Sequence record: MT446422.1
Origin: Escherichia virus TH57
Reading direction: 5' to 3' (one strand)
DNA length: 64,000 nucleotides
The position numbers and the translations under genes were made by a program. The stretch's first letter is position 1. Each line of letters starts with the position of its first letter. Of this stretch, positions 7,980 to 63,418 are shown piece after piece. The notes beneath the pieces are model-generated. The model was not told the DNA's origin. It was given only the letters and a program-made list of their open reading frames with translations, and did no database searches.

Positions 7980-7989
7980 TGGAAGTATA

Positions 7990-9732
7990 TTAGCCAATGT
8001 CAATCCTCGAACCATCAATAGTATATTGACCAGATGCAATTGAACTCATTGTTGACATTGTTTCGGACCAATTGCCAGCCACGGTCATATCAACGTTTCC
8101 ATTAACAGACCATTTGACATTACCATTTACCGTATAATCATGGTTACCTTCGACAAGAGTTTTTGCATCACCTTTAACAGTTATTTCAGCATTACCTTCG
8201 ACAAGAATACTTACATTACCTTTGACGATAATTGTACCATCACCTTCGATAGTTTTGGTTTCATTCCCTCTGATATGAATACTTTCGTTTCCATCGGTCT
8301 GGCGACGAACGTTAGCCATATTGTAATAGGTTTCATCACCGCCAACGTTGACTTTATTATTACCACCAACATAAGTACTCGAATCGCCCTGGGTCATATA
8401 ATAACCATCAGCCACAGTCTTCGAAGTTTTACGGCCATCTGGTGCAACTTCCTCATAGGACCCGGTTGGGTGAATCAGTCGATAACGTTCTTGCCCGGGT
8501 GTATTATCGAATTCCTGAATATGACCGCCTTCAGTTTGCATTGTCTGCACGTAAGGATATTCACCCTTGTAACTTGATTCTGGTTCTTTAAATAGAATCC
8601 TCGTATCTTCTGGAGTCCACGGGTCGGCCGGGTCAGAATTTGTAGGGGCTGCAAAGGTTTGAATCATCCTATAAGAACGGCCATTAAATTCTCTTTCTTT
8701 AGGGGCCATAATACCATATGATTCCATATTACCGGTAAGGATAATCATTGATACCCTTGATGCACGCCCTTTAGTTTGGTTAAACCATACTGAATTGCGA
8801 GCTTCCTCAAATGCCTTCTTATAATCGCCTATTAACATTGCACTAAGCATTCCACGGAATTTAGCCAATCCACCTAATCCCATTTGGAAAGCCATGTTTT
8901 CAAGAGCCATTTGTCTCGAACGGTTTTCTTTATTGTAAACCGGACCTACAACACTATGCTTGCCTATATCGTTTTGGACTTTTTTAAGGTCTTCCTGGAA
9001 TAACTTAGAAGCCTCGTCCATTGATATTGCACCAGGGTTACCTTTAACTTCACGGCCTATTTGATTAGATAATATTTTGTTTATCTGATTCATATCTCTA
9101 ATAGGTTGTGGTGCAATTAAGTGCCCTATACCTATAGTAGGATAACCCTCGGTGTCCCAATATACTTTCAAACGAAGACCTTCATCACGGTGAAGCATAT
9201 TTTCAATTGTGAAATTAGGGTTATCATCTGGTTTAACCTGACTCAAATCAAGACCATCCGGGTTAATACCCAAATCAAGGTTTGCATCTTGTATTACGTT
9301 CGAAGTGGCACCATAACCGACTTCGCCTCCACGGTTAAGCGCAGCAGCATCATTACCTACATAAAGCGGATATTGCCCGGTGGGGTCAGAGAAACCTTCG
9401 TTAGGATTTGCTTTTTGTCTTGAGGCTGAACCATATGTGCCAATGACAAGACCGTTGAGCTTCCACTTGTCTAAAAAGTGACCATACACTTGGGTTCCCG
9501 GGACCATACCAGTCATGGCAGTTTGAATTCCAGAAACCGATGCAGATGATGTTGGCATCAATACTGACATCCAAGGAAGGTCTTCAGTTCTGATACCTTT
9601 TACTGGCCCTTGTGCTTTCTCATATGGATGCATACCCCATACGCGAACACGTACACGACCTTGTTGAAGTGGGTCCATTCGGTCTTCAACAACCCCGACG
9701 AACCAACTTACATTATCTGACATATTAATCAT
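7990..9732 (-). CDS. 5: baseplate hub / cell-puncturing protein gp5 with lysozyme domain
   Basis: 580 aa; internal T4-lysozyme-like segment NMLHRDEGLRLKVYWDTEGYPTIGIGHL; C-terminal beta-helix-like VxGxxxVxV repeats; synteny 53-5. Confidence 0.9.
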   Translation of the reverse strand: MINMSDNVSWFVGVVEDRMDPLQQGRVRVRVWGMHPYEKAQGPVKGIRTEDLPWMSVLMPTSSASVSGIQTAMTGMVPGTQVYGHFLDKWKLNGLVIGTYGSASRQKANPNEGFSDPTGQYPLYVGNDAAALNRGGEVGYGATSNVIQDANLDLGINPDGLDLSQVKPDDNPNFTIENMLHRDEGLRLKVYWDTEGYPTIGIGHLIAPQPIRDMNQINKILSNQIGREVKGNPGAISMDEASKLFQEDLKKVQNDIGKHSVVGPVYNKENRSRQMALENMAFQMGLGGLAKFRGMLSAMLIGDYKKAFEEARNSVWFNQTKGRASRVSMIILTGNMESYGIMAPKEREFNGRSYRMIQTFAAPTNSDPADPWTPEDTRILFKEPESSYKGEYPYVQTMQTEGGHIQEFDNTPGQERYRLIHPTGSYEEVAPDGRKTSKTVADGYYMTQGDSSTYVGGNNKVNVGGDETYYNMANVRRQTDGNESIHIRGNETKTIEGDGTIIVKGNVSILVEGNAEITVKGDAKTLVEGNHDYTVNGNVKWSVNGNVDMTVAGNWSETMSTMSSIASGQYTIDGSRIDIG

Positions 9733-11735: not shown

Positions 11736-12335
11736 ATGTCAGGTTTATATAATCAAACTAACACGACTAACTTTATATTAGAGGTAAGCGATTCAAACCT
11801 CACACAGACCTTTAAACTCAACGTTCAAGACGTTACCCTCCCTGGAGTTCACATCCCTGTGACAGATGTCCCTGGGGGAACACAAGGTATAAATCGCTCC
11901 AGTCTTCCTGGTAGTACAATAGAATTCGACCCACTGATTGTCAACTTTCTGTGTGACAAAGACCTAAGAGCGTGGCTTGACATCTATAAATGGATGCTCT
12001 CGCTCAACAACTACATCACACACGAATCAAAAGCATGGCATCCGAAGGGTCGTCCCGAAGCGGTCACGCTTCATATCTTAGATAACAACAAGGACAAAAT
12101 TGTCATGTCAATCCATTACTATGGAGCATGGCCGTCCGACCTGTCAGAGATTCAGTATTCATATAAAGAAGATTCTGACCCTGCCATCAACGCAACAGCA
12201 ACTTTCAACTTCAAGTCTTTTGCTGTAGAAATTGATGGTATAATAATAGAAGGTAGACCACAGATTGATAGCAATGCAGCAATGCAACAGGAAATCAGGT
12301 CTAAGTCAATGCATCCATCTATGAGAAACATATGA
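11736..12335 (+). CDS. 3: tail completion / sheath stabilizer gp3
   Basis: ORF track 11574..12335; internal ATG at 11736 gives MSGLYNQ...; position between gp2 and gp1 as in T4. Confidence 0.7.
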   Translation: MSGLYNQTNTTNFILEVSDSNLTQTFKLNVQDVTLPGVHIPVTDVPGGTQGINRSSLPGSTIEFDPLIVNFLCDKDLRAWLDIYKWMLSLNNYITHESKAWHPKGRPEAVTLHILDNNKDKIVMSIHYYGAWPSDLSEIQYSYKEDSDPAINATATFNFKSFAVEIDGIIIEGRPQIDSNAAMQQEIRSKSMHPSMRNI

Positions 12336-13008
12336 AATTAATTGCGATTGTGGGTAAAAAACGCAGTGGTAAAGATACGACTGCTGATTATGTTATTAGT
12401 CAAAACGGAACAAAGTGGCAGCTTGCGGGTCCGATTAAAGAAGCGCTTTATAAAGCGTGGATTCGTCAAGACCTACCACACAATTTGACCCTGGAAAATT
12501 TTGATGGACAAGGTTATGACCGTGAAAAAACCTTAATAATGAACAACACCGAAGCTTATATTCTTCTGGTTGATGCTCTTGAATGGTTGAAACAACAATA
12601 CAATCTTGACCTTCCGAATCCAGATATGGTTCGTAAAATCATTGAATTTCACACACTAAATAATGTTGAGCCCTGGACAGTTAGACGTTTCATGCAGACC
12701 CTTGGAACTGACATTGTTTGTACAGAGTTCGACAGCATGTTTTGGATTAAAACTTTTGCATGCGACTATCTTGACAACCTCTATTCTGGATATAAATATT
12801 ACGTTGTCCCAGATGTTCGCCAAAAGAACGAACTTGATTCGCTTCGGGCGATGGGTGCTACAATAATTTTTGTAGAACGCGATGAAGCAAATCATTCTAC
12901 TGATACACACATTACGGAAGCTGGACTTCCACCACTAGCTAGTGACATTGTTATTAAAAACAATGGCACACTCGAAGAACTTTTTGATAAAATTAATAAG
13001 GTAATATA

Positions 13009-13009
<1 letters not shown>
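12332..13009 (+). CDS. 1: deoxynucleoside monophosphate kinase gp1
   Basis: MKLIAIVGKKRSGKDTTADYVI P-loop N-terminus matches T4 gp1; 225 aa. Confidence 0.85.
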
Positions 13010-14735: not shown

Positions 14736-15014
14736 ATGAAAACTTATCAAGAATTTATTAACGAATCAATTAGTCACCCGGATATGCTGGAAGACCTGAA
14801 AGGACATCTGATGGTTAAGGCCAAACCGGTTGATGGTGGCGCATTTGAGTTGTTTCTTGTTAAAGGCGAAAACGGTCCTGATAACAAGAAAGTTTCAGCA
14901 ATGATGTTGACTAAAGGTTACAAAGTCAGTTCTTCCTGGAATGCTCCATTCACTTACGCGGTAAGCCCTCGTGAACTGAAAAAAGTTAAAGCTGGACAAT
15001 ATACAAAAATTTAG
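14736..15014 (+). CDS. internal protein (IP) with capsid targeting sequence
   Basis: N-terminus MKTYQEFINES; early promoter cassette upstream. Confidence 0.65.
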   Translation: MKTYQEFINESISHPDMLEDLKGHLMVKAKPVDGGAFELFLVKGENGPDNKKVSAMMLTKGYKVSSSWNAPFTYAVSPRELKKVKAGQYTKI

Positions 15015-15050
15015 TGTACGTGATGAGATAGTTGTAGTATAATTATCCCA
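15012..15050 (+). promoter_or_regulatory. early promoter cassette (PeSL-like, type A)
   Basis: -35 GTGTAC, -10 TATAAT flanked by GAGATAG / TATCCC. Confidence 0.55.
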
Positions 15051-15068
15051 TCAACTACTGGAGACAAC

Positions 15069-15302
15069 ATGAAAACTTATCAAGAATTTATTAATGAAAC
15101 TGCTGATGTTAAAGTGCAATTCATTTACACCGGCAAGAAAGATAAAATGGGCGAAATGCCTTATGGAACTCTCCGCGACGCCTTAGATAATTACGGTCAG
15201 CTCGGCGGTGAAGAGTTTGGGGACTATTTTGTTATCCAGGGTCCAGCAGAAGTTATCGAGAAATGGGCTAAACAGTATAAATCAATTTTCCGTAAAAAAT
15301 AA
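15069..15302 (+). CDS. internal protein (IP) with capsid targeting sequence
   Basis: N-terminus MKTYQEFINET; early promoter cassette upstream. Confidence 0.65.
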   Translation: MKTYQEFINETADVKVQFIYTGKKDKMGEMPYGTLRDALDNYGQLGGEEFGDYFVIQGPAEVIEKWAKQYKSIFRKK

Positions 15303-16408: not shown

Positions 16409-16485
16409 TAAAAACGCGTTATTATTAATAAGTACCCTCTATTACCAAAGGTTCTTCCCTCAAAGAGCCTTTCATAATAGAATTA

Positions 16486-16560
16486 GGCCCTTTAGCTCAA
16501 TGGGAGAGCTGTCAGCTCATAACTGATAGGTAGCTGGATCGAAACCAGCAAGGGCCACCA
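16486..16560 (+). tRNA. tRNA with CAT anticodon (Met, or Ile if lysidine-modified), CCA encoded
   Basis: Manual cloverleaf: acceptor GGCCCTT/AAGGGCC, D-stem GCTC/GAGC, anticodon loop CTCATAA, T-arm GCTGG-ATCGAAA-CCAGC, 3' ACCA. Confidence 0.8.
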
Positions 16561-16564
16561 AACG

Positions 16565-16641
16565 CGGGGTGTAGCTCAATTGTATAGAGCAACGGTCTTC
16601 TAAACCGTAGGTTGTGGGTTAGAATCCCACCACCCCGACCA
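16565..16641 (+). tRNA. tRNA-Arg (anticodon TCT), CCA encoded
   Basis: Manual cloverleaf: acceptor CGGGGTG/CACCCCG, D-stem GCTC/GAGC, anticodon stem ACGGT/ACCGT with loop CTTCTAA, T-arm GTGGG-TTAGAAT-CCCAC, 3' ACCA. Confidence 0.85.
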
Positions 16642-16656
16642 ATTACCGAGGATATT

Positions 16657-16896
16657 ATGGTTATTAGTGAATCATATGCAGTTATGGATATAACCAACAA
16701 CGAGCTGGTTTATAGCTTTGATGAGTTTGATGAAAATGATAAACAAGTCCCATGGTTTGCATTAACTGCTCCACCTGAGCATAATAAATATCTAAGTTTC
16801 CCGACTCGCAGATTAGCAACAAATTTTATGGAATTCAATGACCTTGATTCCAATTATAAGGTTGTTAAAGTCAAATTAGCTATTACAATTGAATGA
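16657..16896 (+). CDS. hypothetical protein
   Basis: ORF track 16612..16896 overlaps tRNA-Arg; first ATG past the tRNA is at 16657. Confidence 0.45.
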   Translation: MVISESYAVMDITNNELVYSFDEFDENDKQVPWFALTAPPEHNKYLSFPTRRLATNFMEFNDLDSNYKVVKVKLAITIE

Positions 16897-17195
16897 GAAA
16901 CCGGGTCGCTACCGGTAAGTCGTCGGACTGATGTTCCCTGTTTAAGGACTGACATTAATAAATCTTTACGATTTGTTGATGTCCCCTTATATCACAGCTG
17001 AAACGGCGCACCGAATTATCGATTCGAGGAAATATCTTTGCCGTAAGCCGAGTAGCGTTTTTGACGGAACGTTCGGATATGGTCGAGATATGGCCTTTTA
17101 AAAATATTGAGTAGCGTCAACTGCTTAATAACCGGGTTCGAATCCCGGCGTTTCGTACAAACACTTGCCTTGCAGGTGGAACCCCGACAAGGTAT
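16897..17195 (+). ncRNA. candidate small stable RNA(s) with a tRNA-like T-arm (analogous to T4 species 1/2 RNAs)
   Basis: About 300 bp without a supported ORF right after the tRNAs; contains CCGGG-TTCGAAT-CCCGG T-arm-like hairpin near 17136-17152; followed by a terminator. Confidence 0.3.
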
Positions 17196-22248: not shown

Positions 22249-22278
22249 AATTATCACAAGGATGTGATAGGAGGACTT

Positions 22279-22608
22279 ATGCACAGAGATTCAGTATTTA
22301 AATATCTTTTAAAAACAGATAAAGAATTTTATATGGATGGACAAGCATTCTTGTTCGTTCGCGGTAAGCGTGAAATGTTTTATAAATGCGACCTCTCCAT
22401 GCATCATCACATGTACCATACCCATGGCGAGTCCATACTAGGGTTCTCTGGTGATGAGACTAAACATATAGCTATGTATTATGACCATTTCAAGCTCAAT
22501 GATTGTGGTGATAATGCTTTGGTCTGGAATCCATCTTGGTGCCGGTGGGATACAATAGACAACAATAAATTATTTTTAGAATATTGCAGAAGTAGTATAC
22601 AACTCTAG
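22279..22608 (+). CDS. hypothetical His/Cys-rich protein
   Basis: ORF track 22264 uses GTG; ATG at 22279 after AGGAGG. Confidence 0.5.
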   Translation: MHRDSVFKYLLKTDKEFYMDGQAFLFVRGKREMFYKCDLSMHHHMYHTHGESILGFSGDETKHIAMYYDHFKLNDCGDNALVWNPSWCRWDTIDNNKLFLEYCRSSIQL

Positions 22609-22672
22609 AAAATCGTGTTACTATTCTCTTATCAACTGATGACAATCACGTTATCAGAACAGGAGAATAAAA

Positions 22673-22873
22673 ATGTCTATCGCAAACGAATTAATCAAAG
22701 TTCTGAACGAAGCCAAAGCCAACCAACTGGAGGTTAATCTCCAGGAAGTTTCAGATGGCATTAAAGTAACCATCAGCGGCGATGGCGTTCCAGGCACTAC
22801 AGAGGTTTACGATTCTTTGGAAGAAGTGGTTTCTTGCATTAAAAGAGCCGTTTACTTATATGGTATAATTTGA
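22673..22873 (+). CDS. hypothetical protein
   Basis: 66 aa ORF with GGAG RBS. Confidence 0.45.
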   Translation: MSIANELIKVLNEAKANQLEVNLQEVSDGIKVTISGDGVPGTTEVYDSLEEVVSCIKRAVYLYGII

Positions 22874-22883
22874 GGAAAATATT

Positions 22884-23051
22884 ATGTATAATGTTCTTAT
22901 TGTTTTTGTCACTCACCCGCAAGGTGGAGTAAGACAGAATACTTCTCAAGTGGTTCAATTTTCTTCACTAGAGGCCGCCAATCTTGCTGCCTCACGAATT
23001 GAAGCGAAAAAATCGGCACTTGGAAAATATGAAGTAACTCGTCTTTACTAA
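22884..23051 (+). CDS. small hypothetical protein (55 aa, below ORF-track cutoff)
   Basis: ATG preceded by GAGGAAAATATT, the same RBS context used by neighbouring genes; fills a gap. Confidence 0.4.
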   Translation: MYNVLIVFVTHPQGGVRQNTSQVVQFSSLEAANLAASRIEAKKSALGKYEVTRLY

Positions 23052-23064
23052 TGAGGAAAATATT

Positions 23065-26068: not shown

Positions 26069-26560
26069 ATGAATATATTCGAAATGTTACGCATAGATGA
26101 AGGTTGTAAGTTGGATTTGTACCGTGACACCGAAGGCTTTTGGACCATCGGCATCGGTCAATTGATAACTAAGAACCCATCGAAAGACGTTGCTCGCGCT
26201 GAGCTGGACAAATTAATGGGTCGTGTTTGCAACGGTAGGATTACCCAGATTGAAGCTGAAACCTTGTTTAACCGTTCAGTGGAAAAAGCTAAAGCCGGAA
26301 TCTTGAAACATCCTGTCTTAAAACCTGTTTATGATGTACTGGATGAAGTTCGTCGTTGCGCACTCATTAATATGGTATTCCAAATGGGTGTAGCTGGTGT
26401 AGCTGGTTTTCCTAAGGGGCTGCGATTGCTCAAGGCTAAATCATGGGAAGCTGCTGCTAAGGAACTGGCTGACTCAAGATGGTATAAAGTCCAGACTCCG
26501 AACCGGGCCAAACGAGTTATTGAAACTTTCCGTACTGGAACTTTTGACGCATACAAATGA
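26069..26560 (+). CDS. e: endolysin (T4 lysozyme, gene e)
   Basis: [12 protein letters not shown]...DTEG..TIGIG...PNRAKRVI matches T4 lysozyme closely, with catalytic Glu11/Asp20/Thr26 positions conserved. Confidence 0.95.
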
Positions 26561-28190: not shown

Positions 28191-28718
28191 ATGAAATTTT
28201 TAACTCCAATTTATCTAACCTTAATGCACGCCTTCGCTGAACGCGCCATTGAACGCTTAGATTCAGACCAATACACCTGGTATGAACCCGCTTCAAGAAT
28301 GCAAGAGTTTGGTACTCTTCGACTTGATGGTGGTCGTCAAACAGGTAAAACAAGTGCCCTTGCACAGTTCGCTGCGGATTGGGTTTCCAAGGGTAATGAT
28401 GTGATTGTTATGTCGAGTTCTTCACATCGCTCCCGAGAAATCTGTGATATAATAAAGCGGGTTTCTAAGGCGCAACCACATCTTAATGTTGAGCGACCTG
28501 GTTTTGTTGTATATGATACTGTTCGTTCATTTTTAGACGAAGATAATTTCCATAAGTACCGTGGATTGCGTTTTACGCGTCTTTTAATCATTATTGAAGA
28601 ACCTATTCGCCTCCCTACAATGGATAAGTTCTATGAAGCTTATCAGGTAATGATGAATAAATTTATGTGTCAAGGTGATAAGCCTTTGCCGTTATTCTTT
28701 GTGATAGGAATGCAATAA
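28191..28718 (+). CDS. small P-loop NTPase-like protein
   Basis: Walker A-like GGRQTGKTS and Walker B-like LLIIIEE. Confidence 0.5.
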   Translation: MKFLTPIYLTLMHAFAERAIERLDSDQYTWYEPASRMQEFGTLRLDGGRQTGKTSALAQFAADWVSKGNDVIVMSSSSHRSREICDIIKRVSKAQPHLNVERPGFVVYDTVRSFLDEDNFHKYRGLRFTRLLIIIEEPIRLPTMDKFYEAYQVMMNKFMCQGDKPLPLFFVIGMQ

Positions 28719-33982: not shown

Positions 33983-34218
33983 TGAAACTTACAAATACCA
34001 TGGTTTCATTGGAATATGAAACCAATAATCATATTCTTGAAATTAAGATATTTGATGACGGAAGCATATTTGCTGATTACCGCGGATATAGAATTCGCCT
34101 GGAAAAGGAACAGCTTAAAGATGTTGAGCTTTTTAAAGAAACATTAAAAAGTTGTGGGTGTAAACTGAAAAATACTCAAGTCCAAGAATTAATTTCTACC
34201 ATCAACAAATACTGGTGA
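33982..34218 (+). CDS. hypothetical protein
   Basis: 78 aa, ATGA coupling. Confidence 0.45.
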   Translation: MKLTNTMVSLEYETNNHILEIKIFDDGSIFADYRGYRIRLEKEQLKDVELFKETLKSCGCKLKNTQVQELISTINKYW

Positions 34219-34222
34219 TATT

Positions 34223-34405
34223 ATGTTAACTACTGAACAAATTGAAAAAATTATTAAACTCGCCTGGCATATTGAAAATGCATCTAATGACCTGGCAGTG
34301 GAATTATGTGAAGGCTATTCATATTCTGGAATAGAACAGTGTAAGCGTGATTTGAATAGTTCTAAAGCTAATTTGGTTGAATATCTGAATGGGTTGAAAG
34401 CATAA
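34223..34405 (+). CDS. hypothetical protein
   Basis: 60 aa ORF. Confidence 0.4.
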   Translation: MLTTEQIEKIIKLAWHIENASNDLAVELCEGYSYSGIEQCKRDLNSSKANLVEYLNGLKA

Positions 34406-41489: not shown

Positions 41490-41803
41490 AAAATCGTTTA
41501 AGAGAAGATATTGCTGCGGCCTCTAATACAGATTTATTGAAATTTATTAAAGAAGCCGAGCTCGATGAAGTTAAATTGAATGGAAAAATTCATGGCTGTG
41601 ATGATTATAGCCGAGATATTCCTGATTGGAATGCTATTATTAAAATTGTCGAACGTCGTGAAAAAGCTTCTAAGAACGTTCCTAACTGTCCTATGTGTGG
41701 AACTGAACAAGTCCAGTTGATTCAATGGCGACATAATCCGCTTCAGTATAAATGTCGCATGTGTAAACACAAATTTGAGCGAGATGAAAATGGCAAAGCG
41801 TAA
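41486..41803 (+). CDS. zinc-ribbon protein
   Basis: C-terminal CPMCG...CRMCKH four-cysteine ribbon. Confidence 0.5.
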
Positions 41804-43874: not shown

Positions 43875-44348
43875 ATGTTGTTGACTGGCAAATTATACAA
43901 AGAAGAAAAACAAAAACTTTATGATGCACAAGCTGGTAAGTGTCCAATTTGCCACCGTGATTTGGACTCTGATGTTCAGGCCAACCATCTTGACCATGAC
44001 CACGAATTGAACGGGCCAAAAGCCGGTAAGGTTCGCGGGTTACTATGCAATCTGTGCAATGGAACAGAAGGGCAAATGAAGCATAAGTTCAGCCGTTCGG
44101 GTCTGAAAGGTCGTGATGTTGACTACCTGGAATGGTTGGAGAGTTTGCTTGTCTATCTGAAATCTGATTATACCGAAAACAATATTCACCCCAATTTTGT
44201 AACAGACAAAGCCAAAGAGTTTGGCCGCCTGGGGAAAGAAGAAATGATTCGGGAAATGCTTTTGAATGGTATGACTTATAATGAATCTGACACCAAAACA
44301 CAATTAATGGCTTCATTTAAGAAGCAGCTTAGAAAGAGTTTAAAATGA
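43875..44348 (+). CDS. 49: endonuclease VII (Holliday junction resolvase gp49)
   Basis: MLLTGKLYKEEKQKLYDAQAGKCPICHRDLDSDVQANHLDHDHELNGPKAGKVRGLLCNLCN matches T4 endo VII; 157 aa. Confidence 0.95.
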   Translation: MLLTGKLYKEEKQKLYDAQAGKCPICHRDLDSDVQANHLDHDHELNGPKAGKVRGLLCNLCNGTEGQMKHKFSRSGLKGRDVDYLEWLESLLVYLKSDYTENNIHPNFVTDKAKEFGRLGKEEMIREMLLNGMTYNESDTKTQLMASFKKQLRKSLK

Positions 44349-46162
44349 CAATTGAAAACGAAATTGAAGGATTGATTCATAAAACTAATAAAGACCTTTT
44401 AAACGAGAATGCTAATAAAGATTCTCGTGTTTTTCCAACTCAACGTGACCTTATGGCTGGTATTGTATCTAAACACATTGCCAAAAATATGGTCGCGTCT
44501 TTTATTATGAAAGCACATGAAAGCGGAATTATTCATTTCCATGATATTGATTATTCCCCTGCTCTTCCATTTACTAATTGCTGTTTAGTAGATTTAAAAG
44601 GAATGCTTGAGAACGGATTTAAGCTTGGTAACGCACAGATTGAAACTCCTAAATCAATTGGTGTTGCTACTGCAATTATGGCACAAATTACTGCACAGGT
44701 TGCTTCTCACCAATATGGTGGAACGACTTTTGCTAATGTAGACAAAGTATTTTCTCCTTATGTTAAACGTACATACGCAAAACATATTGAAGACGCAGAA
44801 AAATGGCAAATCACTGATGCATTGAATTATGCCCAATCTAAAACAGAAAAAGACGTATACGATGCATTCCAAGCTTATGAATACGAAGTAAATACTCTCT
44901 TTAGTTCAAACGGACAAACGCCTTTTGTAACCATTACATTTGGTACGGGAACTGACTGGACTGAACGAATGATTCAGAAAGCAATTCTGAAAAATCGTAT
45001 CAAAGGTCTTGGTCGCGATGGGATAACTCCTATTTTCCCTAAACTTGTTATGTTCGTTGAAGAAGGTGTTAATCTTTATAAAGACGACCCGAACTATGAT
45101 ATTAAGCAGCTTGCTCTAGAGTGTGCAAGCAAAAGAATGTATCCTGATATTATTTCAGTTAAGAATAATAAAGCTATCACCGGTTCATCTATTCCTGTTT
45201 CTCCAATGGGTTGCCGTAGTTTCTTGAGCGTATGGAAAGATTCGACTGGTAATGAAATTCTTGATGGACGTAATAATCTTGGCGTTGTAACACTGAATCT
45301 TCCTCGTATTGCATTAGATTCTTATATTGGAACACAGTTCAATGAACAGAAATTTATCGAATTGTTTAATGAGCGAATGGATTTATGTTTTGAAGCATTG
45401 ATGTGCAGAATTAGTTCCTTAAAAGGAATTAAAGCGACTGTTGCTCCTATTCTTTACCAAGAAGGTGCGTTCGGGGTTCGTCTTAAACCTGATGATGATA
45501 TAATTGAGTTATTTAAAAACGGTAGAAGTTCAGTGTCTTTGGGATACATTGGTATTCACGAATTGAATATTCTTGTCGGTCGTGATATTGGGCAGGAAAT
45601 TTTAACTAAAATGAATGCTCGTCTTAAGCAGTGGACCGAAAGAACCGGTTTTGCTTTTAGCTTGTATTCTACTCCCGCTGAAAACCTTTGTTATCGATTC
45701 TGTAAACTTGATACTGAAAAATATGGAAGTGTAAAAGATGTTACCGATAAAGGATGGTACACTAACAGTTTCCATGTTTCAGTAGAAGAAAATATTACTC
45801 CGTTTGAAAAGATTTCTCGCGAAGCACCATATCATTTCATTGCGACAGGTGGTCACATTTCTTATGTTGAACTTCCTGATATGAAAAATAACTTAAAAGG
45901 TCTTGAGGCTGTATGGGATTATGCTGCACAACATTTAGATTATTTTGGTGTTAATATGCCAGTAGATAAATGTTTTACGTGTGGAAGTACCCATGAGATG
46001 ACTCCTACTGAAAACGGATTTGTTTGTTCTATTTGTGGAGAAACTGACCCTAAAAAGATGAACACAATAAGAAGAACATGCGGCTATCTTGGAAACCCGA
46101 ACGAACGCGGATTTAATCTCGGCAAAAATAAAGAAATCATGCATAGGGTTAAACACCAATGA
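44345..46162 (+). CDS. nrdD: anaerobic ribonucleoside-triphosphate reductase NrdD
   Basis: 605 aa, same length as T4 NrdD; C-terminal Cys cluster CFTCGSTHEM...CSICG; followed by nrdG. Confidence 0.9.
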   Translation: MTIENEIEGLIHKTNKDLLNENANKDSRVFPTQRDLMAGIVSKHIAKNMVASFIMKAHESGIIHFHDIDYSPALPFTNCCLVDLKGMLENGFKLGNAQIETPKSIGVATAIMAQITAQVASHQYGGTTFANVDKVFSPYVKRTYAKHIEDAEKWQITDALNYAQSKTEKDVYDAFQAYEYEVNTLFSSNGQTPFVTITFGTGTDWTERMIQKAILKNRIKGLGRDGITPIFPKLVMFVEEGVNLYKDDPNYDIKQLALECASKRMYPDIISVKNNKAITGSSIPVSPMGCRSFLSVWKDSTGNEILDGRNNLGVVTLNLPRIALDSYIGTQFNEQKFIELFNERMDLCFEALMCRISSLKGIKATVAPILYQEGAFGVRLKPDDDIIELFKNGRSSVSLGYIGIHELNILVGRDIGQEILTKMNARLKQWTERTGFAFSLYSTPAENLCYRFCKLDTEKYGSVKDVTDKGWYTNSFHVSVEENITPFEKISREAPYHFIATGGHISYVELPDMKNNLKGLEAVWDYAAQHLDYFGVNMPVDKCFTCGSTHEMTPTENGFVCSICGETDPKKMNTIRRTCGYLGNPNERGFNLGKNKEIMHRVKHQ

Positions 46163-46629
46163 ATTACGATAGAATATATCCTTGCGATTTTATTAATGGT
46201 CCTGGCTGCAGGGCCGTTCTTTTCGTTACAGGTTGTTTGCATAAATGCGAAGGGTGTTATAATAAATCAACATGGAATGCTAGAAATGGTGTTCCATTCA
46301 CTGGTGAAACACTAGAACAATTAATTGAATGTTTGAATAATGATTATATAGAAGGATTGACTATAACTGGAGGAGACCCTCTCTATCCCGATAACCGAGA
46401 TGTTATTCACTCTGTGGTTCAAACTATTAAAAATCTTTATCCCAATAAAAGCATTTGGTTGTGGACCGGATATAAGTTTGAAGATATTAAACAACTAGAA
46501 ATGCTTAAATATGTTGATGTTATTATTGATGGGAAGTATGAGAAAAATCTTCCGACCAAAAAACTGTGGCGAGGGTCAGATAATCAGCGACTTTGGTCAA
46601 ATACCGATGGGGTGTGGAAACATGATTAA
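46159..46629 (+). CDS. nrdG: anaerobic RNR activating enzyme NrdG (radical SAM)
   Basis: N-terminal CLHKCEGC radical-SAM cysteine motif; 156 aa; coupled to nrdD. Confidence 0.9.
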   Translation: MNYDRIYPCDFINGPGCRAVLFVTGCLHKCEGCYNKSTWNARNGVPFTGETLEQLIECLNNDYIEGLTITGGDPLYPDNRDVIHSVVQTIKNLYPNKSIWLWTGYKFEDIKQLEMLKYVDVIIDGKYEKNLPTKKLWRGSDNQRLWSNTDGVWKHD

Positions 46630-48759: not shown

Positions 48760-49086
48760 ATGACTGCATCTATCACTAACATCATCGCTAATTTCGCATT
48801 TACTAAAGTTAACACTCTGATGAAATCTGGTTTTGTTACTCCTGAGATTCTGGACCAGTGGGAAGGCGATGTACAGAAACTGATTATTGCAGAAGGTCAG
48901 ACAATGGGTAAAGCGCGTATTCGTGAAAGCCTTGTCCAGTATATCCTGAATGAATTTGATGTAGTAGCGTTTGGTTTACCGCTTCTGCGTGAAAACAAAG
49001 AAGTTTCTGATAAAGCTATCAAGCGTATGAAGTCCCAACGCAAGAAGGGGTTTGTTGACCTGAAAATTGTTAAGGGTGCAAAATGA
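48760..49086 (+). CDS. hypothetical protein
   Basis: 108 aa ORF after hairpin-embedded promoter and GAGGAA RBS. Confidence 0.5.
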   Translation: MTASITNIIANFAFTKVNTLMKSGFVTPEILDQWEGDVQKLIIAEGQTMGKARIRESLVQYILNEFDVVAFGLPLLRENKEVSDKAIKRMKSQRKKGFVDLKIVKGAK

Positions 49087-49346
49087 TGTGCCCTGCTATT
49101 GAATTACCTGAAGGTGTTGCGGTAATAGTATCCTACAAACATACGTATGCTAATGGAATTCGCCGAGCTCATAAAATTAGTCACGGTTACTATTTACAAA
49201 GGACTTTAAATTATTTCATTTCAATGGGATATGAATTCAGAATCTATCCTATGTGTACTAAAACCAAGTACACTAAAATCGATGCTTGGGAAGCTTGGGC
49301 GGAAGGCATGACATTAGACGAATTCCTGGACTACTTAAATGATTAA
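49083..49346 (+). CDS. hypothetical protein
   Basis: 87 aa ORF, ATGA coupling. Confidence 0.45.
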   Translation: MMCPAIELPEGVAVIVSYKHTYANGIRRAHKISHGYYLQRTLNYFISMGYEFRIYPMCTKTKYTKIDAWEAWAEGMTLDEFLDYLND

Positions 49347-50477: not shown

Positions 50478-50694
50478 TATTACCGATTTTTTAGATAAAA
50501 TCGAGGAAGACTTTACTGCGCTCCCATATTTCATTAAACTTTATCTGCGAGACATAAAAGGTCTTCCAATTGATATCGACCCTTTAAACGTCCGGAATCT
50601 GGAATTTACTTCACCGGATAATAACGTTGATTACCGTTATCATGTGGATAATGCTAATCTATATTTTACAATTGAGTTAACTCCCAAGGATTAA
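50461..50694 (+). CDS. hypothetical protein
   Basis: ORF track 50443; ATG at 50461. Confidence 0.45.
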
Positions 50695-50695
50695 T

Positions 50696-51007
50696 ATGCA
50701 AGCTCCAGATATTTCTCAACTGACCGATAAGCAGATTGAAGAAGCACAGGAACGTCTCGAAGAAGCGAACGCACTCGAAGCGCAGAGTCAAGCAGCAAAG
50801 ATTCTGAAAAAGAATGCTCGTGAAATTGCACGACTGAATAAGCATGCTCAAGGGGCAGTGCTGGAAAACAATTTTGAAGCATACAAATATGCTTTAGTTA
50901 AACTGCGTGGAATTTACCGCCAACCAGTTACGGAAGACCTGATTAAGTTGATGTGGGAAACTACTCGCAAACAAATTTGGGAAATCGTAAATGGCATTAG
51001 TAAATAA
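50696..51007 (+). CDS. hypothetical protein
   Basis: 103 aa ORF. Confidence 0.45.
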   Translation: MQAPDISQLTDKQIEEAQERLEEANALEAQSQAAKILKKNAREIARLNKHAQGAVLENNFEAYKYALVKLRGIYRQPVTEDLIKLMWETTRKQIWEIVNGISK

Positions 51008-51194
51008 ACCTTTTAAACGGCTTCTTGTTGGAGCCGCTTTCAGACTTCGCTCATACGGTAATATCTGTATCAAGCAGACCGAAACCGAATATAAAATGGT
51101 TGGTCAGTATTCTGATGGTATTTTTCAGATTGAGCCTGTGGCCAAGGTTTGGGTGGATTCACACCAACTTAAGAAATGGTGGCAACGATGGTAG
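50991..51194 (+). CDS. hypothetical protein
   Basis: 67 aa ORF. Confidence 0.4.
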   Translation: MALVNKPFKRLLVGAAFRLRSYGNICIKQTETEYKMVGQYSDGIFQIEPVAKVWVDSHQLKKWWQRW

Positions 51195-51284
51195 GATTTT
51201 ATGAAAGCGGATGTAACGAAGACGAACATCCGGATTTTTAAGCTTATGAACGACGAATAAGAAAAAGTTTAAGAGGTTTTATGA

Positions 51285-51458
51285 ATGACGAATTCGACGG
51301 ATTTTGATAAGATTAAATCTGGCAAAAATGAGATGATACTTCAATTTGAAGCCGCTCGTATTAAAGCAGAAAATGAAGGCACTATTACCCATAAGAAAAT
51401 CAAGTTCAAGTCTAATCGCGAACCTCTGTATGGTGTATTAATTGGAAAGGAAGCCTAG
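51285..51458 (+). CDS. small hypothetical protein (57 aa)
   Basis: ATG 8 nt after AAGAGG; stop lies in the loop of a terminator hairpin. Confidence 0.35.
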   Translation: MTNSTDFDKIKSGKNEMILQFEAARIKAENEGTITHKKIKFKSNREPLYGVLIGKEA

Positions 51459-51470
51459 TGCTTCCTTTTT
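51448..51470 (+). terminator. rho-independent terminator
   Basis: AGGAAGC-CTAGT-GCTTCCT hairpin followed by TTTTT. Confidence 0.55.
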
Positions 51471-51514
51471 GCTTTATATTCGGGATGATAAAATGAACCA
51501 ACTGAGGAGAACAT

Positions 51515-51658
51515 ATGGAATTATTTTTAGGATATGTTGTGTTATTCATGGCATTCTACACATTCACACGAGCTTGTTGGATAGGATTCTTTTCTACTCC
51601 TGACGGGTTCATTTCAATAATTTTATTTTGCACTGCGATAACGGCGCTTGGCTTATGA
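51515..51658 (+). CDS. small hydrophobic protein (47 aa) overlapping gp47 start
   Basis: ATG after GAGGAG; hydrophobic; stop overlaps gp47 ATG. Confidence 0.35.
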   Translation: MELFLGYVVLFMAFYTFTRACWIGFFSTPDGFISIILFCTAITALGL

Positions 51659-58473: not shown

Positions 58474-61188
58474 ATGCAAGAATTTTATTTAACTATCGAA
58501 CAAATCGGTGACAATCTGCTTGAACGATACATTGACAAGAACGGTCATGAACGTGTTCGTGAAATCCCTTATGCTCCATGCTTGTTTATGCATGCCCGTG
58601 AAGACCAGGCTGCAAAGTATACAGACATCTATAATAAAGGTTGTGTGAAAAAAGAATTCGATTCCATGCGTGATGCATCCCAGTGGATGAAGCGAATGAA
58701 TGACATGGGTCTCGAAGCTATGGGTATGGATGACTTTAAACTCGCATACTTGTCCGACCGTTACCCGCACGAAATCAAATACGATTCAAGTAAAATCCGT
58801 GTGGCTAACTTCGATATCGAGGTGACATCTCCTGATGGGTTCCCTGAGCCGTCTGAAGCACGTCACCCTATTGATGCCCTGACGCACTATGATTCGGTAG
58901 ACGATAAATTCTATGTCTTTGACCTTTTGAGCTCACCATACGCCACTGTGGAGCAATGGTCTATCGATATTGCTGCTAAGCTGCAAGAAGATGGCGGCGA
59001 TGAAGTCCCCGAAGAAATCCTGGAAAAAATTGTTTATATGGCCTTCGATTCAGAAGAAGAAATGCTCCAGCAGTATTTGGTATTCTGGAACGAGAAAACT
59101 CCGGTTATGTTGACTGGTTGGAACATCGAGAAGTTTGATATTCCATATATCTACAACCGCCTTAAAAATGTGTTTGGTGAAGCTACGGCAAAACGTCTGA
59201 GTCCACATCGTCGTACAAAAGTTAAGGTCATTAACAACGGATTCGGTGAAGAACAAGAAATCATTCAGATTCTGGGTATCTCTGTTCTGGATTATCTGGA
59301 CCTGTATAAAAAGTTCAGCTTCACAAACCAACCATCTTATTCGTTGGATTATGTTGCAGAATCTGAGCTGGGTGTTGGTAAACTCCCGTATGATGGTCCG
59401 ATTTCTAAACTGCGTGAATCAAATCACCAACGGTATATTTCTTATAACATCATCGACGTTTATCGTGTTGTGCAGATTGACCGTAAGCGACAGTTTATTA
59501 ACCTAAGCCAGTCAATGGGTTATTATGCAAAAATGCAGATTCAGTCTGTATTCAGCCCAATCAAAACTTGGGATGCGATTATCTTTAACAGCCTGAAGAC
59601 GCAAAACAAAGTCATTCCGGAAACCAAATCGCATGTTCGCCAATCGTTCCCTGGTGCATTTGTTAAGGAACCGATTCCGAACGCATACAAATACGTTATG
59701 AGCTGTGACTTAACATCTCTGTATCCGAGCATCATCCGACAGATTAACATCAGTCCAGAAACGATTGCCGGGTCATTTGCACCTGCGCCGATGTACGAAT
59801 ACATTGCAGGAACTGCTGACCGTCCATCTGATACATTTAGTTGTGCTCCAAACGGTATGATGTATTTTAAAGATGTTGCGGGTATTATTCCGACAGAAGT
59901 CACCAAGGTGTTTAATCAGCGTAAAGAACACAAAGGCTATATGCTTGCGGCTCAACGTAATGGTGAACTGATTAAGGAAGCTCTGCGTAATCCAGGAACT
60001 GGTACAACCGAGCCTGAAGTTGATTATCGTTATGACTTTGATGACAATATGAAAACAACCTTGCATGGTCTGAATCAAACAGTCCTGAATGGTATGTTGT
60101 ACAAAGCGCAGATGGAAGAAGTTGCTGGTATGACCGCACAGATTAACCGTAAACTGCTTATCAACAGTTGTTATGGTGCTCTGGGTAATATCTGGTTCCG
60201 TTACTTTGACCTGCGAAATGCAACCGCGATTACATCTTTCGGGCAACTTGCATTGCAGTGGATTGAGCGTAAAGTTAACGAATATTTTGATAGTGTTTGT
60301 GGTACAAGTGGTGAAACATATGTATTCTATGGCGATACTGACTCCATTTATATCCAGTGCGATAACCTGATTAAAAAGGTTGGTGGCGAATCTAAATTCC
60401 GCGATACAAACCACCTGGTTGACTTCATGGACAAGTTTGCGAAAGACCGTCTGGAACCAGCAATCGATAAAGCTTTCCGTGAACTAGCTGAATACATGAA
60501 CAACAAACAGCACCTTATGTTTATGGACCGTGAAGCGATTGCATGTCCTCCACTTGGTTCTAAAGGTGTTGGTGGATTCTGGACGGCGAAGAAGCGTTAT
60601 GCTCTGAACGTGTACGATATGGAAGGCACACGATATGCTGTTCCGAAACTGAAAATCATGGGTCTGGAAACTCAAAAGTCGAGCACACCAAAAGCATGTC
60701 AGAAAGCTCTGAAAGAATGTATCCGCCGTATGTTGCAAGAAGGTGAAGAATCTCTGCAGACGTACTTCAAGGAATTCAACAAGGAATTTAATGAGCTTAA
60801 TTACATGACCATCGCAGGTGTATCATCGGTTAACAACATCCAGAAATATAATGAGGGTGGTTTCCCTGGATTTAAGTGTCCGGCTCATATCAAAGGCGTG
60901 CTTGCTTACATGCGTGCAACCAAAGGGCTGAAGACTGTTCCACAAATCATGGAAGGGGAAAAGGTGTATGTGCTTCCTCTTAAAGTTGGTAACCCGTTTG
61001 GCGAAACCGTGATTGCGTGGCCATCAGGGATTGAACTCCCGATTGAAATTCGTGACCAAGTCTTGCAGTGGATGGACTACAACACACTGTTCCAGAAGAC
61101 TTTTGTTAAGCCATTGACAGGGTTCTCTGAAGCAGCTAAGGTTGATTACGAGAAAAAAGCATCTCTTTTTGATATGTTTGACTTTTAA
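58474..61188 (+). CDS. 43: DNA polymerase gp43
   Basis: 904 aa; MQEFYLTIEQIGDNLLERYIDKNG... and VANFDIEVT exonuclease motif match T4 gp43; uninterrupted. Confidence 0.95.
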   Translation: MQEFYLTIEQIGDNLLERYIDKNGHERVREIPYAPCLFMHAREDQAAKYTDIYNKGCVKKEFDSMRDASQWMKRMNDMGLEAMGMDDFKLAYLSDRYPHEIKYDSSKIRVANFDIEVTSPDGFPEPSEARHPIDALTHYDSVDDKFYVFDLLSSPYATVEQWSIDIAAKLQEDGGDEVPEEILEKIVYMAFDSEEEMLQQYLVFWNEKTPVMLTGWNIEKFDIPYIYNRLKNVFGEATAKRLSPHRRTKVKVINNGFGEEQEIIQILGISVLDYLDLYKKFSFTNQPSYSLDYVAESELGVGKLPYDGPISKLRESNHQRYISYNIIDVYRVVQIDRKRQFINLSQSMGYYAKMQIQSVFSPIKTWDAIIFNSLKTQNKVIPETKSHVRQSFPGAFVKEPIPNAYKYVMSCDLTSLYPSIIRQINISPETIAGSFAPAPMYEYIAGTADRPSDTFSCAPNGMMYFKDVAGIIPTEVTKVFNQRKEHKGYMLAAQRNGELIKEALRNPGTGTTEPEVDYRYDFDDNMKTTLHGLNQTVLNGMLYKAQMEEVAGMTAQINRKLLINSCYGALGNIWFRYFDLRNATAITSFGQLALQWIERKVNEYFDSVCGTSGETYVFYGDTDSIYIQCDNLIKKVGGESKFRDTNHLVDFMDKFAKDRLEPAIDKAFRELAEYMNNKQHLMFMDREAIACPPLGSKGVGGFWTAKKRYALNVYDMEGTRYAVPKLKIMGLETQKSSTPKACQKALKECIRRMLQEGEESLQTYFKEFNKEFNELNYMTIAGVSSVNNIQKYNEGGFPGFKCPAHIKGVLAYMRATKGLKTVPQIMEGEKVYVLPLKVGNPFGETVIAWPSGIELPIEIRDQVLQWMDYNTLFQKTFVKPLTGFSEAAKVDYEKKASLFDMFDF

Positions 61189-61190
61189 GT

Positions 61191-61221
61191 GTTTACAACG
61201 GCAAAGGACTGCCGTATGATT
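61191..61221 (+). promoter_or_regulatory. early promoter upstream of the Imm-like gene
   Basis: -35 GTTTAC, 18 bp spacer, -10 TATGAT, followed by type-A-like leader CCATCAACTGATGA. Confidence 0.45.
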
Positions 61222-61257
61222 ACTCCATCAACTGATGAATAACTTAAGGATATTAAA

Positions 61258-61500
61258 ATGGAAACATTAATTGCGGGTACTGTTGTTCTGGGTGCTGGCT
61301 CTTTCTTCCTGGCTGCACTGGCATATTTTCTGCCGTGGATTATCGCACTACTGCGAGGAACCAAAAGTAATTGCGGAATCTTCTTTGTTAACCTCCTGTT
61401 AGGTTGGACAATGGTCGGATGGTTTATTGCATTTATCTGGGCACTCGTTGCTGAGCGTAAATCAAACGCACAAGTAATTATCATCAAGGAAACCAAATGA
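61258..61500 (+). CDS. small two-helix membrane protein (Imm-like position)
   Basis: 80 aa with two hydrophobic helices, directly after gene 43 where T4 carries imm. Confidence 0.5.
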   Translation: METLIAGTVVLGAGSFFLAALAYFLPWIIALLRGTKSNCGIFFVNLLLGWTMVGWFIAFIWALVAERKSNAQVIIIKETK

Positions 61501-61650
61501 AGATAATTACAATTATTATACTGATTGCATTTTTTAGTATGTCAATCTATTGGGCAATAATGACTCCGCATATGATTCCAACTTTAATTTTGGGTTGGGT
61601 ATTTTTGGGGCTCCAAGCTCGCTATGAATGTTTTAATTGAGGAAAATACA

Positions 61651-62154
61651 ATGAAAAAGTTAGCTATCGCAGCTGTTATGCTGCTATCTGGTTGTGCTTA
61701 CCAGGGCGATGTAGTTAATGTCAGTGAAATTGGTAAAGCGCGAATTGCTGCAGACCGTCAGGTGCATAATGGTTCCTTTGATTTCAAAGGTGGTACTGGA
61801 CTTATCTACAAACGCGACAACAATCAATGTGGAAACAACTGCGCAAAATATGCTCAACAAGAAATTGAGTACAAACGCGAGCAAGCTGCAAAGCATGACG
61901 AAATCATTGCCAAGCTGGAAGCAGAAACTAAGCGACAAAATGACTTGGATACTGTTAACCAGATTTCACAGGTCTGCATGTCATACATCAATATGCAGAT
62001 AAACATCATGCGCGCGGAAGCTTATCAGGCAGCGGAGACGGGTTCTCCAAAAGCCAATGAGTATCGCGATATGTATCAGCGGTCTGCTCAAAATCGTCTG
62101 AGCTATATTAATAAATGTGTGGCTAAAGAGAAAGCCCGCCAAGGTATTAACTAA
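61651..62154 (+). CDS. putative lipoprotein
   Basis: ORF track 61624; ATG at 61651 after GAGGAAAATACA; lipobox-like LLSGC. Confidence 0.5.
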   Translation: MKKLAIAAVMLLSGCAYQGDVVNVSEIGKARIAADRQVHNGSFDFKGGTGLIYKRDNNQCGNNCAKYAQQEIEYKREQAAKHDEIIAKLEAETKRQNDLDTVNQISQVCMSYINMQINIMRAEAYQAAETGSPKANEYRDMYQRSAQNRLSYINKCVAKEKARQGIN

Positions 62155-62239
62155 CATTAATTGCTCTAAAAATACAGTGATATAATTATCCTATCTTAAA
62201 CCTGTGAGAAAAATATAATGGTGCCTATGGAAAAAATGA

Positions 62240-63418
62240 ATGTCTATTGCAGATTTGAAATCCCGTTTGATTAAAGCTTCTACATCCAAAATGACTGCGA
62301 CTCTTACTAAGTCCAAGTTTTTTAATGATAAAGATGTAGTTCGTACAAAAATCCCGATGCTGAACATTGCAATCAGCGGTGCACTAGATGGTGGTATGCA
62401 GTCAGGTTTGACTATTTTTGCTGGTCCGTCAAAACACTTTAAATCCAATATGGGTTTAACGATGGTCTCTGCATATATGAACAAATACCCCGAAGCAATC
62501 TGTTTGTTCTATGATTCAGAATTTGGTATCACAGAAGCCTATCTGCGTGCAATGAAAGTAGACCCGGAGCGTGTTATCCACACACCAATCCAGTCGGTTG
62601 AACAATTGAAAGTTGATATGGTTAACCAGCTTGAAGCAATTGAGCGTGGTGAAAAAGTCATTATCTTTATTGACTCAATCGGTAACATGGCGTCAAAAAA
62701 AGAAACAGAAGATGCGATGAACGAAAAAGTCGTTGGCGATATGACTCGTGCTAAATCCCTGAAATCTCTGTTCCGTATTGTTACCCCATATTTTAGTATC
62801 AAGGATATTCCTTGTGTCGCGGTTAACCATACAATCGAGACGATTGAGATGTATAGCAAAACCGTTATGACCGGTGGTACAGGTGTTATGTATTCTGCGG
62901 ACACCGTATTCATTATCGGCAAACGCCAGATTAAAGAAACTGGTAAAGAACTTGAAGGTTTCCAATTTGTTCTGAATGCCGAAAAATCTCGTATGGTCAA
63001 AGAGAAAAGTAAATTCTTCATTGATGTAAAATTCGATGGTGGTATTGACCCGTATTCTGGCCTGCTTGATATGGCAATGGAAATCGGATTTGTAGTGAAA
63101 CCGAAAGTTGGTTGGTATAACCGTGAATATCTTGATGTTGAGACCGGTGAAATGGTCCGCGAAGAAAAATCATGGCGTGCAAAAGATACTAACTGTACTG
63201 AATTCTGGGGCCCGTTGTTTAAGCACGAACCTTTCCGTGACGCAATCAAACGCCATTACCAACTGGGTGCAATCGATAGCAATGCTGTTGTTGATGCCGA
63301 AGTTGATGCGCTTATTGCCTCCAAGGTTGAAAAATACTCTGCCCCTGAAGGTAAGGCAAAACCATCTGCGGCAGATATCGAAAACGATTTAGATATGATG
63401 GAAGACCTTGATGAATGA
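62240..63418 (+). CDS. uvsX: recombinase UvsX (RecA-like)
   Basis: 392 aa; LKSRLIKASTSKMTA...GPSKHFKSN...SLFRIVTPYF... matches T4 UvsX. Confidence 0.95.
   Translation: MSIADLKSRLIKASTSKMTATLTKSKFFNDKDVVRTKIPMLNIAISGALDGGMQSGLTIFAGPSKHFKSNMGLTMVSAYMNKYPEAICLFYDSEFGITEAYLRAMKVDPERVIHTPIQSVEQLKVDMVNQLEAIERGEKVIIFIDSIGNMASKKETEDAMNEKVVGDMTRAKSLKSLFRIVTPYFSIKDIPCVAVNHTIETIEMYSKTVMTGGTGVMYSADTVFIIGKRQIKETGKELEGFQFVLNAEKSRMVKEKSKFFIDVKFDGGIDPYSGLLDMAMEIGFVVKPKVGWYNREYLDVETGEMVREEKSWRAKDTNCTEFWGPLFKHEPFRDAIKRHYQLGAIDSNAVVDAEVDALIASKVEKYSAPEGKAKPSAADIENDLDMMEDLDE

Follow-up and report, generated by a model that had tools for sequence, protein, structure and literature searches.

The DNA examined is a stretch of 64,000 nucleotides from Escherichia virus TH57 (sequence record MT446422.1), here called the window; the remaining ~107 kb of the genome lie outside it. 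The phage is a Gaprivervirus resembling SP18, VR7 and TH54, and the gene order of T4 is kept across the window. The subject is the interval between the DNA polymerase gene 43 and the recombinase gene uvsX, positions 61189-62239, which is 94-99.9% identical to that of ~30 Gaprivervirus phages, including SP18, VR7, VR20, VR26 and the TH series. Gene 42, encoding the dCMP hydroxymethylase of T4, is missing from it. Behind this absence stands the question of how a phage that keeps enzymes destroying or silencing cytosine DNA replicates without a known cytosine-modifying enzyme. The interval is a conserved T4-type envelope module at the spot where related phages keep a cytosine-modification cassette. 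A candidate for the modifying enzyme is encoded elsewhere in the genus, by the thymidylate synthase gene td, the product of which has an aspartate at specificity position 177 and may act on dCMP. With the end of gene 43 at 61188 and the start of uvsX at 62240, an earlier note on this DNA had delimited the interval correctly. The features are the following.

58474-61188, + strand: gene 43, DNA polymerase, 904 amino acids, left boundary (annotated gp43 at the syntenic place in SP18, VR7, VR25 and JS98)

61192-61220, + strand: sigma-70-like promoter candidate before imm, TTTACA-17-TATGAT (consensus scan, 10/12 matches)

61258-61500, + strand: imm, superinfection-immunity inner-membrane protein, 80 amino acids (PF14373, phrog_1039, identity to T4 Imm)

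61497-61640, + strand: small membrane protein, 47 amino acids (VR7 'gp42.1', JS98 orf44, phrog_3610; profile match and annotated relatives)

61651-62154, + strand: lipoprotein of the T4 Imm.1 family (phrog_1754), 167 amino acids, starting MKKLAIAAVMLLSGC (profile match, lipobox)

62155-62239, + strand: junction and uvsX leader (alignment with JS98, VR7 and VR25)

62240-63418, + strand: uvsX recombinase, right boundary (PF21134, E 3.6e-39, and RecA domain)

The interval consists of three + strand genes, one more than the earlier note had counted; the 47-amino-acid open reading frame (ORF) had been overlooked. The first, imm, lies just 3′ of gene 43 and was correctly described as an Imm-like protein with two membrane helices: the hydrophobic stretches, read from the translation, span residues ~3-32 and 40-64. 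The protein matches PF14373 with 64.2 bits (cut-off 27.9; E 1e-17) and phrog_1039 with E 1.8e-30, and T4 Imm is 52% identical over 83 amino acids. Blocking the DNA entry of superinfecting phages, the function of the PF14373 family, is predicted for it. The start of the 47-amino-acid ORF overlaps the imm stop (ATGA). Its product covers positions 1-47 of 47 in phrog_3610 (E 1.6e-26) and is 56% identical to JS98 orf44; the ORF is annotated in SP18 and VR7. T4 has an unannotated 49-amino-acid membrane protein, MKSKIIAALLLILM...YECIN, between imm and 42 (NC_000866, ~26220-26372, - strand; 12221-12373 in the retrieved locus L001), which is homologous to the window ORF and to phrog_3610. An antisense ORF at 61185-61496, wholly inside the imm region, has no support.

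The third gene encodes the 167-amino-acid protein with the LLSGC lipobox that had been noticed before, and a GAGG sits 8 nt upstream of its ATG. A lipoprotein signal peptide is predicted from the sequence pattern, MKKLAIAAVMLLSG followed by C, with alanine at +2. The L-L-S-G-C motif is invariant across 10 aligned homologues; T4 has LAGC. Among the four cysteines of the mature part, Cys59, Cys63 and Cys155 are invariant and Cys108 is nearly so in the same 10 homologues. The protein matches phrog_1754 at profile positions 3-147 of 148 (E 1e-45), as T4 Imm.1 does at positions 2-146 of 148 (E 6e-43), and BLASTP similarity of the two proteins is confined to the first 28 residues. JS98 orf43 is ~52% identical. 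The family occurs in Gaprivervirus, Dhakavirus and T4-like phages of Enterobacter, Serratia, Erwinia, Kosakonia and Edwardsiella, and maps to ~23-31 kb, the 43-uvsX region, in records with the usual T4-like numbering. In an AlphaFold model, only a helical bundle at the C-terminus is predicted with confidence; residues 100-160, which are helical throughout, have predicted local distance difference test (pLDDT) values above 90. Foldseek searches of the model in PDB and BFVD yielded the JS10 orthologue and otherwise only generic helical matches, searches of Pfam and NCBIfam gave nothing significant for the protein, and a literature search on the function of Imm.1 gave nothing useful.

In E. coli, the +2 residue governs the sorting of lipoproteins, and by this rule the alanine suggests the outer membrane as destination. 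The placement beside imm and the small membrane protein makes a role in superinfection exclusion plausible; for each of the three envelope proteins, such a role is one that we infer. T5 Llp and Cor of phages phi80 and N15 are lipoproteins acting at the outer membrane against superinfecting phages. They share with the window protein small size, a residue other than aspartate at +2 and a gene beside a known exclusion gene, whereas no similarity of sequence or fold was found. The earlier note had seen the lipoprotein as standing there instead of the modification genes. It is not a replacement, since T4 Imm.1 is a member of its family and it adjoins the cassette in JS98.

The junction behind the lipoprotein gene holds a MotA-box-like ATTGCTCTA (62160-62168) and a TATAAT (62181-62186), which, going by the T4 consensus, may be a middle promoter. 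The promoter candidate at 61192-61220 is a pattern match only, and the count of such matches in the region is not above that in shuffled sequence. No Rfam RNA family was found on either strand of the interval. Past the lipoprotein gene and ahead of the uvsX leader, VR7 (L015, ~1562-1802) and VR25 (L014, ~5502-5692) have an additional ~160-190 bases, which in VR7 encode another small hydrophobic ORF. The window is without this stretch (compare 62155), and the interval thus varies within the genus.

In T4, the order is 43-imm.1-imm-(unannotated 49-amino-acid ORF)-42-beta-gt-segA-uvsX. The window shares with it the flanking genes and the three envelope families (Imm PF14373, phrog_3610 and phrog_1754), and differs in being without gene 42, beta-gt and segA. 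T4 Imm.1 has 125 amino acids and precedes imm, while the window lipoprotein has 167 and follows it. The T4 interval had been given in the earlier note as imm, 42 and beta-gt; these genes are there, but the imm.1 lipoprotein gene and segA had been omitted. JS98, of the sister genus Dhakavirus, is a better comparator than T4. Its order is 43-imm-orf44-lipoprotein (orf43)-orf42-orf41-orf40-orf39 (thymidylate synthase-like)-orf38 (glycosyltransferase)-uvsX. Dhakavirus JS98 and Mosigvirus RB69 have the same sequence of 43, imm, small ORF and lipoprotein gene as the window, and the same uvsX leader. The difference is a five-gene cassette, ~4.4 kb in JS98, with functions in UDP-arabinose synthesis, phosphatase, nucleotide kinase, 5-hydroxy-dCMP synthase and arabinosyltransferase. 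The RB69 counterparts of orf42-orf38 make UDP-arabinose and 5-hydroxy-dCMP and put arabinose on the DNA (Lee et al. 2026, PMC13326640). SP18, VR7, VR25 and the window show the JS98 order minus these five genes; VR25 is a more divergent Gaprivervirus species with the same architecture. In the alignment with JS98, VR7 and VR25, the conserved uvsX leader starts a few bases past the lipoprotein stop codon, so the cassette is missing exactly between the two. This local anatomy and the absence of the cassette are hardly in doubt.

Searches for the missing genes were extended to the complete genome of TH54, standing in for the window phage, and to SP18 and JS98 outside their structural block (~83-121 kb; given as 90-121 kb for SP18), so that ~82% of SP18 was covered. 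T4 gp42, beta-gt and alpha-gt had no tblastn match in the window (best E 0.21, for gp42; none below E = 1 for the glucosyltransferases), in agreement with the earlier statement that gene 42 and beta-gt do not lie between gp43 and uvsX, nor in TH54 (best E >1). A divergent gene 42 elsewhere was sought by relaxing tblastn to E = 50, which yielded noise only. JS98 orf38-42 had no match in TH54, in the SP18 part or in the window. The place of alpha-gt in T4 is represented in the window as follows.

50478-51627, + strand: gene 55-gene 47 interval, the T4 alpha-gt site (ORF list, SP18 annotation, negative alpha-gt tblastn)

It contains only small ORFs of the a-gt.2 to a-gt.5 type and no glucosyltransferase. 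T4 dam lies between gene 56 and gene 61, where SP18 (NC_014595, 15617-16006) has 390 nt without an annotated gene; a dam homologue was not found in TH54. That gene 42 or a glycosyltransferase gene sits in the part of the genome outside the window might be supposed, as 64 kb are visible, T4-like genomes are mosaic, and the window and TH54, ~98% identical over long common blocks, have more divergent and unaligned segments between these blocks. The supposition is left with next to no probability: the complete TH54 has no such gene, published surveys score the whole genus negative, and the 32 records that share this interval architecture all seem to come from Gaprivervirus. As no homologue of gene 42, alpha-gt, beta-gt or a gene of the JS98 cassette was found, the window phage is unlikely to have sugar-modified DNA or hydroxymethylcytosine from the T4 route. 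To this extent, the earlier claim that the phage does not make hydroxymethylcytosine DNA stands. The absence of gene 42 from the genus is already published and ordinary. Gaprivervirus has been described as being without the hydroxymethylase yet with dCTPase, denA, denB, ndd and alc, and an unknown non-canonical base or 'an unknown protein' has been proposed for it (PMC8056088, 2021; PMC12115623, 2025).

The further step to unmodified DNA is poorly supported. SP18 encodes the gp56 dCTPase (70% identity to T4), which the earlier note had listed for the same search as gene 42, and also DenB, DenA, Ndd, Cd, Frd, gp1 and an intact Alc. A disrupted alc was considered as a sign of cytosine DNA and rejected: the annotated alca is full length (167 amino acids), and alcb is a partial N-terminal duplicate. 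In SP18 (NC_014595, 138071-138821), the intact alc is followed by a 77-amino-acid ORF, the partial duplicate of the Alc N-terminus. One member of the modified-dCMP pathway, and only one, lies inside the window.

12332-13009, + strand: gene 1, deoxynucleoside monophosphate (dNMP) kinase (phrog_139, E 3.9e-59)

For VR7, a supplementary figure on restriction analysis states that the phage 'has modified cytosines' in unglycosylated DNA (Gordeeva et al., PMC6326788, Supplementary Fig. S4). The retained genes and the modified cytosines reported for VR7 together indicate that the DNA is probably modified and probably not plain cytosine. According to the alternative, the cytosine of the DNA is ordinary and unmodified, gp56 has no role but that of a dUTPase, and proteins shield the DNA from restriction. 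It accords with the lack of gene 42 and glucosyltransferase genes in the window and TH54, with the full restriction of VR7 by BREX reported in that study (PMC6326788), and with T4-like phages listed with a high predicted transduction frequency (Krischvirus, Pseudotevenvirus), in which homologues of gp56 and denA are likewise retained (Table 4, PMC12115623). However, denB and full-length alc, both absent from Krischvirus and Pseudotevenvirus, are kept in SP18, VR7 is reported with modified cytosines in the figure cited, and the sole thymidylate synthase homologue has an aspartate that specifies dCMP. Unmodified cytosine DNA is therefore regarded as very unlikely.

The td-frd pair of SP18 (NC_014595, 144065-145503) lies outside the window, and in its td an Asp occupies the Asn177 specificity position. 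SP18 td reads ...YQRSVDVFLGLPFDIGSY... where JS98 td reads ...LPFNIASY..., at position 177 in the numbering of E. coli ThyA. The 177 column was confirmed by alignment with the T4 thymidylate synthase structure (1TIS). In this superfamily, Asn at residue 177 stands for dUMP and Asp for dCMP as substrate, a bulky hydrophobic residue 143 marks a methyl product and an acidic one a hydroxymethyl product, and D169N marks the 5-hydroxy-dCMP synthases (PMC8670742, PMC13326640). Thymidylate synthase mutants N177D and N229D have been engineered as dCMP methylases (Liu & Santi 1992; Hardy & Nalivaika 1992, both as cited in PMC8670742).

By alignment, the td proteins of SP18, VR7, TH54, YenP8 (Yersinia phage P8) and P0002 (metagenomic) have D177, L143 and D169, and all five retain R21, E58, Y94, C146, H147, R166, S167, H207 and Y209. 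Asp177 is found in the td of VR20, VR25 and VR26 too. The C-terminus of Gaprivervirus td is of the thymidylate synthase type (...HPTIAAPMAV). JS98 and Tequatrovirus td have N177, T4 gp42 has D177 and D143, and JS98 orf39 has D177, E143 and N169. Each genome has one thymidylate synthase homologue. The RB69/JS98-type arabinosylation cassette was not recognised, and that sole homologue has D169. Among the 120 nearest thymidylate synthase clusters, 115 have Asn177; the five with Asp are four Gaprivervirus clusters and P0069, an uncultured T4-like contig. P0069 was considered as an independent Asp177 lineage and rejected, as its best phage matches are Gaprivervirus td; it shares ~25 signature residues with them and thus belongs to the same clade. 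Phage records with the cassette-less interval and those with an Asp-type td number 32 each; compared by eye, the two lists overlap wherever entries of both are shown.

The td protein comfortably passes the NCBI thymidylate synthase model (TIGR03284, 282.9 bits, cut-off 108), and this is why surveys by 'gene 42' homology have scored the genus negative. Its nearest solved structure is that of T4 thymidylate synthase (1TIS, E 6e-128), an enzyme with which it shares 68% identity. Between SP18 and JS98, td is 69% identical, and JS98 and T4 share 85%. The corresponding values for frd are 65% for SP18/JS98, 65% for SP18/T4 and 79% for JS98/T4. The expected pattern is seen in gp43, with 78.6% for SP18/JS98, 60% for SP18/T4 and 61% for JS98/T4. 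The td-frd pair is an evolutionary outlier, which suggests its replacement or its fast evolution.

D177 combined with L143, D169 and an intact C-terminus corresponds to the signature published for dCMP methylases, and makes 5-methylcytosine DNA likely. L143, D169 and the thymidylate synthase-type C-terminus argue for hydride transfer and hence for a methyl product. Gaprivervirus td is thus likely a thymidylate synthase of the dCMP methylase type making 5-methyl-dCMP. The thymidylate synthase-family enzyme with Asp177, encoded at the td locus in each Gaprivervirus that was checked, would then be an analogue of gene 42, and the view that the phage has no such analogue is not supported. With the methylase type (the N177D and N229D mutants and the pathway of Xanthomonas phage XP12), it shares the thymidylate synthase fold, Asp177, the catalytic cysteine, L143, D169 and the C-terminus, as well as the pairing with a dCTPase and a dNMP kinase; it differs in lying at the td locus of T-even-type coliphages, as their only thymidylate synthase homologue. 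The enzyme and the T4 gene 42 product are of one superfamily, both have Asp as the specificity residue, and both presumably follow gp56 in the pathway. The T4 protein, however, has an acidic residue 143 and no thymidylate synthase C-terminus, whereas Gaprivervirus td has Leu143 and that C-terminus, and no sequence homologue of gene 42 is detectable by tblastn in the window or TH54.

The window phage most likely still replaces cytosine, though by a different route, and the pathway proposed would start with gp56, converting dCTP to dCMP. The Asp177 enzyme would convert dCMP into 5-methyl-dCMP with methylene-tetrahydrofolate, and the adjacent frd product would recycle the folate. A divergent gp1 kinase and the host NDP kinase would yield 5-methyl-dCTP, and its incorporation by gp43 would result in 5-methylcytosine DNA. 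DenA and DenB would degrade the host cytosine DNA and Alc would silence it; DenB and Alc would spare the 5-methylcytosine DNA while still acting on that of the host. An analogous pathway to 5-methylcytosine DNA operates in Xanthomonas phage XP12. Beyond the sequence signature of td, we infer every step, including the product of the enzyme and the identity of the base. Replacement of cytosine by this 5-methylcytosine route is given a probability of roughly 0.55-0.6. The evolutionary proposition that Gapriverviruses are T-even-type coliphages with 5-methylcytosine DNA, owing to a td retargeted from dUMP to dCMP with frd co-diverging after loss of the 43-uvsX cassette, is evenly balanced.

Several points weigh against the 5-methylcytosine route. 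As td lies outside the window, its presence in this phage follows from ~32 related genomes. The legend on VR7 restriction does not name the base (PMC6326788, Supplementary Fig. S4). The residue code is empirical, and a natural Asp177 enzyme could give a product other than the methylated one. If td is retargeted, the phage is left without a dUMP-specific thymidylate synthase of its own; dTMP might then come, speculatively, from host ThyA, from tk or from deamination of 5-methyl-dCMP by cd. The restriction systems McrA, McrBC and Mrr of E. coli K-12 should attack 5-methylcytosine DNA. K-12 hosts are listed for some Gapriverviruses, and no arn homologue is annotated. The sparing of 5-methylcytosine by DenB and Alc is an assumption of the pathway. 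In the literature searched, to which the original VR7 and SP18 genome papers did not belong, neither a stated identity of the base in these phages nor a link between td and 5-methylcytosine was found.

Cytosine may also be modified otherwise, either by the Asp177 enzyme adding another C5 group, e.g. hydroxymethyl, or by an enzyme that has escaped recognition. Published authors suggest 'an unknown protein' (PMC8056088, PMC12115623), and the residue code is correlative. The divergence of gp1, DenB and Alc fits such a reading as well. SP18 gp1 is 54.5% identical to JS98 gp1 and 51.8% to T4 gp1, and the SP18/JS98 identities are 47.2% for Alc and ~42% for DenB. Both gp1 and Alc, proteins that need to work on or recognise the modified base, are unusually divergent between SP18 and JS98. 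A screen of TH54 for ORFs of at least 70 amino acids that SP18 shares but JS98 and 14-42 kb of T4 lack gave no large enzyme. It returned ORFs of less than 170 amino acids, genes shared with T4 parts beyond those retrieved, and artefacts of the structural regions of JS98 and SP18 left out of the search. The Gaprivervirus-specific ORFs from this screen, all below 170 amino acids, include no recognisable enzyme, L143, D169 and the C-terminus speak for the methyl product, and the VR7 legend separates a hydroxymethylated T4147 from VR7, which is termed 'modified' only (PMC6326788). Another modification is accordingly doubtful, though a real possibility.

Protein-based anti-restriction, on which the earlier note had expected the phage to rely, may well matter. 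VR7 is unprotected from BREX, and 5-methylcytosine DNA would attract type IV enzymes. With Asp177 td, a specific and testable candidate is available for the long-flagged 'unknown base' of Gaprivervirus. If the 5-methylcytosine route is true, methyl would be a third chemistry beside the hydroxymethyl and hydroxy routes of the T-even-type phages, and a housekeeping gene would have stepped in for a modification cassette that was lost. Automated 'thymidylate synthase' labels would hide such switches. Phages considered as candidates for therapy would be predicted to be sensitive to BREX and type IV systems and resistant to many type II enzymes.

Related td genes were also seen in metagenomes. An uncultured T4-like contig of 5417 bp (L017, Logan SRR24146912) carries a td of 292 amino acids from the Asp177 clade at 3953-4831, with Klebsiella phage-like flanks; the clade thus reaches beyond the cultured Gapriverviruses. 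Among the thymidylate synthase relatives retained from viral metagenomes (IMG/VR, loci L074-L099; ~42-46% identity), Asp177 occurs in the motif LGLPYDIAMYGL in 14 of 80, and dCMP-directed thymidylate synthases therefore look common in uncultured phages.

Other observations concern the remainder of the window. By megablast, patches at ~14765-15289, 16483-17160, 22275-23052, 28204-28695, 33985-34223, 41514-41654 and 49086-49302 could not be aligned to TH54; they are mosaic, hypervariable patches among early genes. The 687-amino-acid SP18_gp165 was considered as an enzyme of the genus and set aside, being neither conserved nor present in the window. At 7458-8039 (- strand), the window has an ORF of 193 amino acids, where SP18 (77249-79312) has one of 687 amino acids, RB43 ORF205w-like, between gp5 and gp6. 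The genes nrdD and nrdG for an anaerobic ribonucleotide reductase, at 44345-46629 (+ strand), are not at the syntenic place in JS98 and are present also in SP18.

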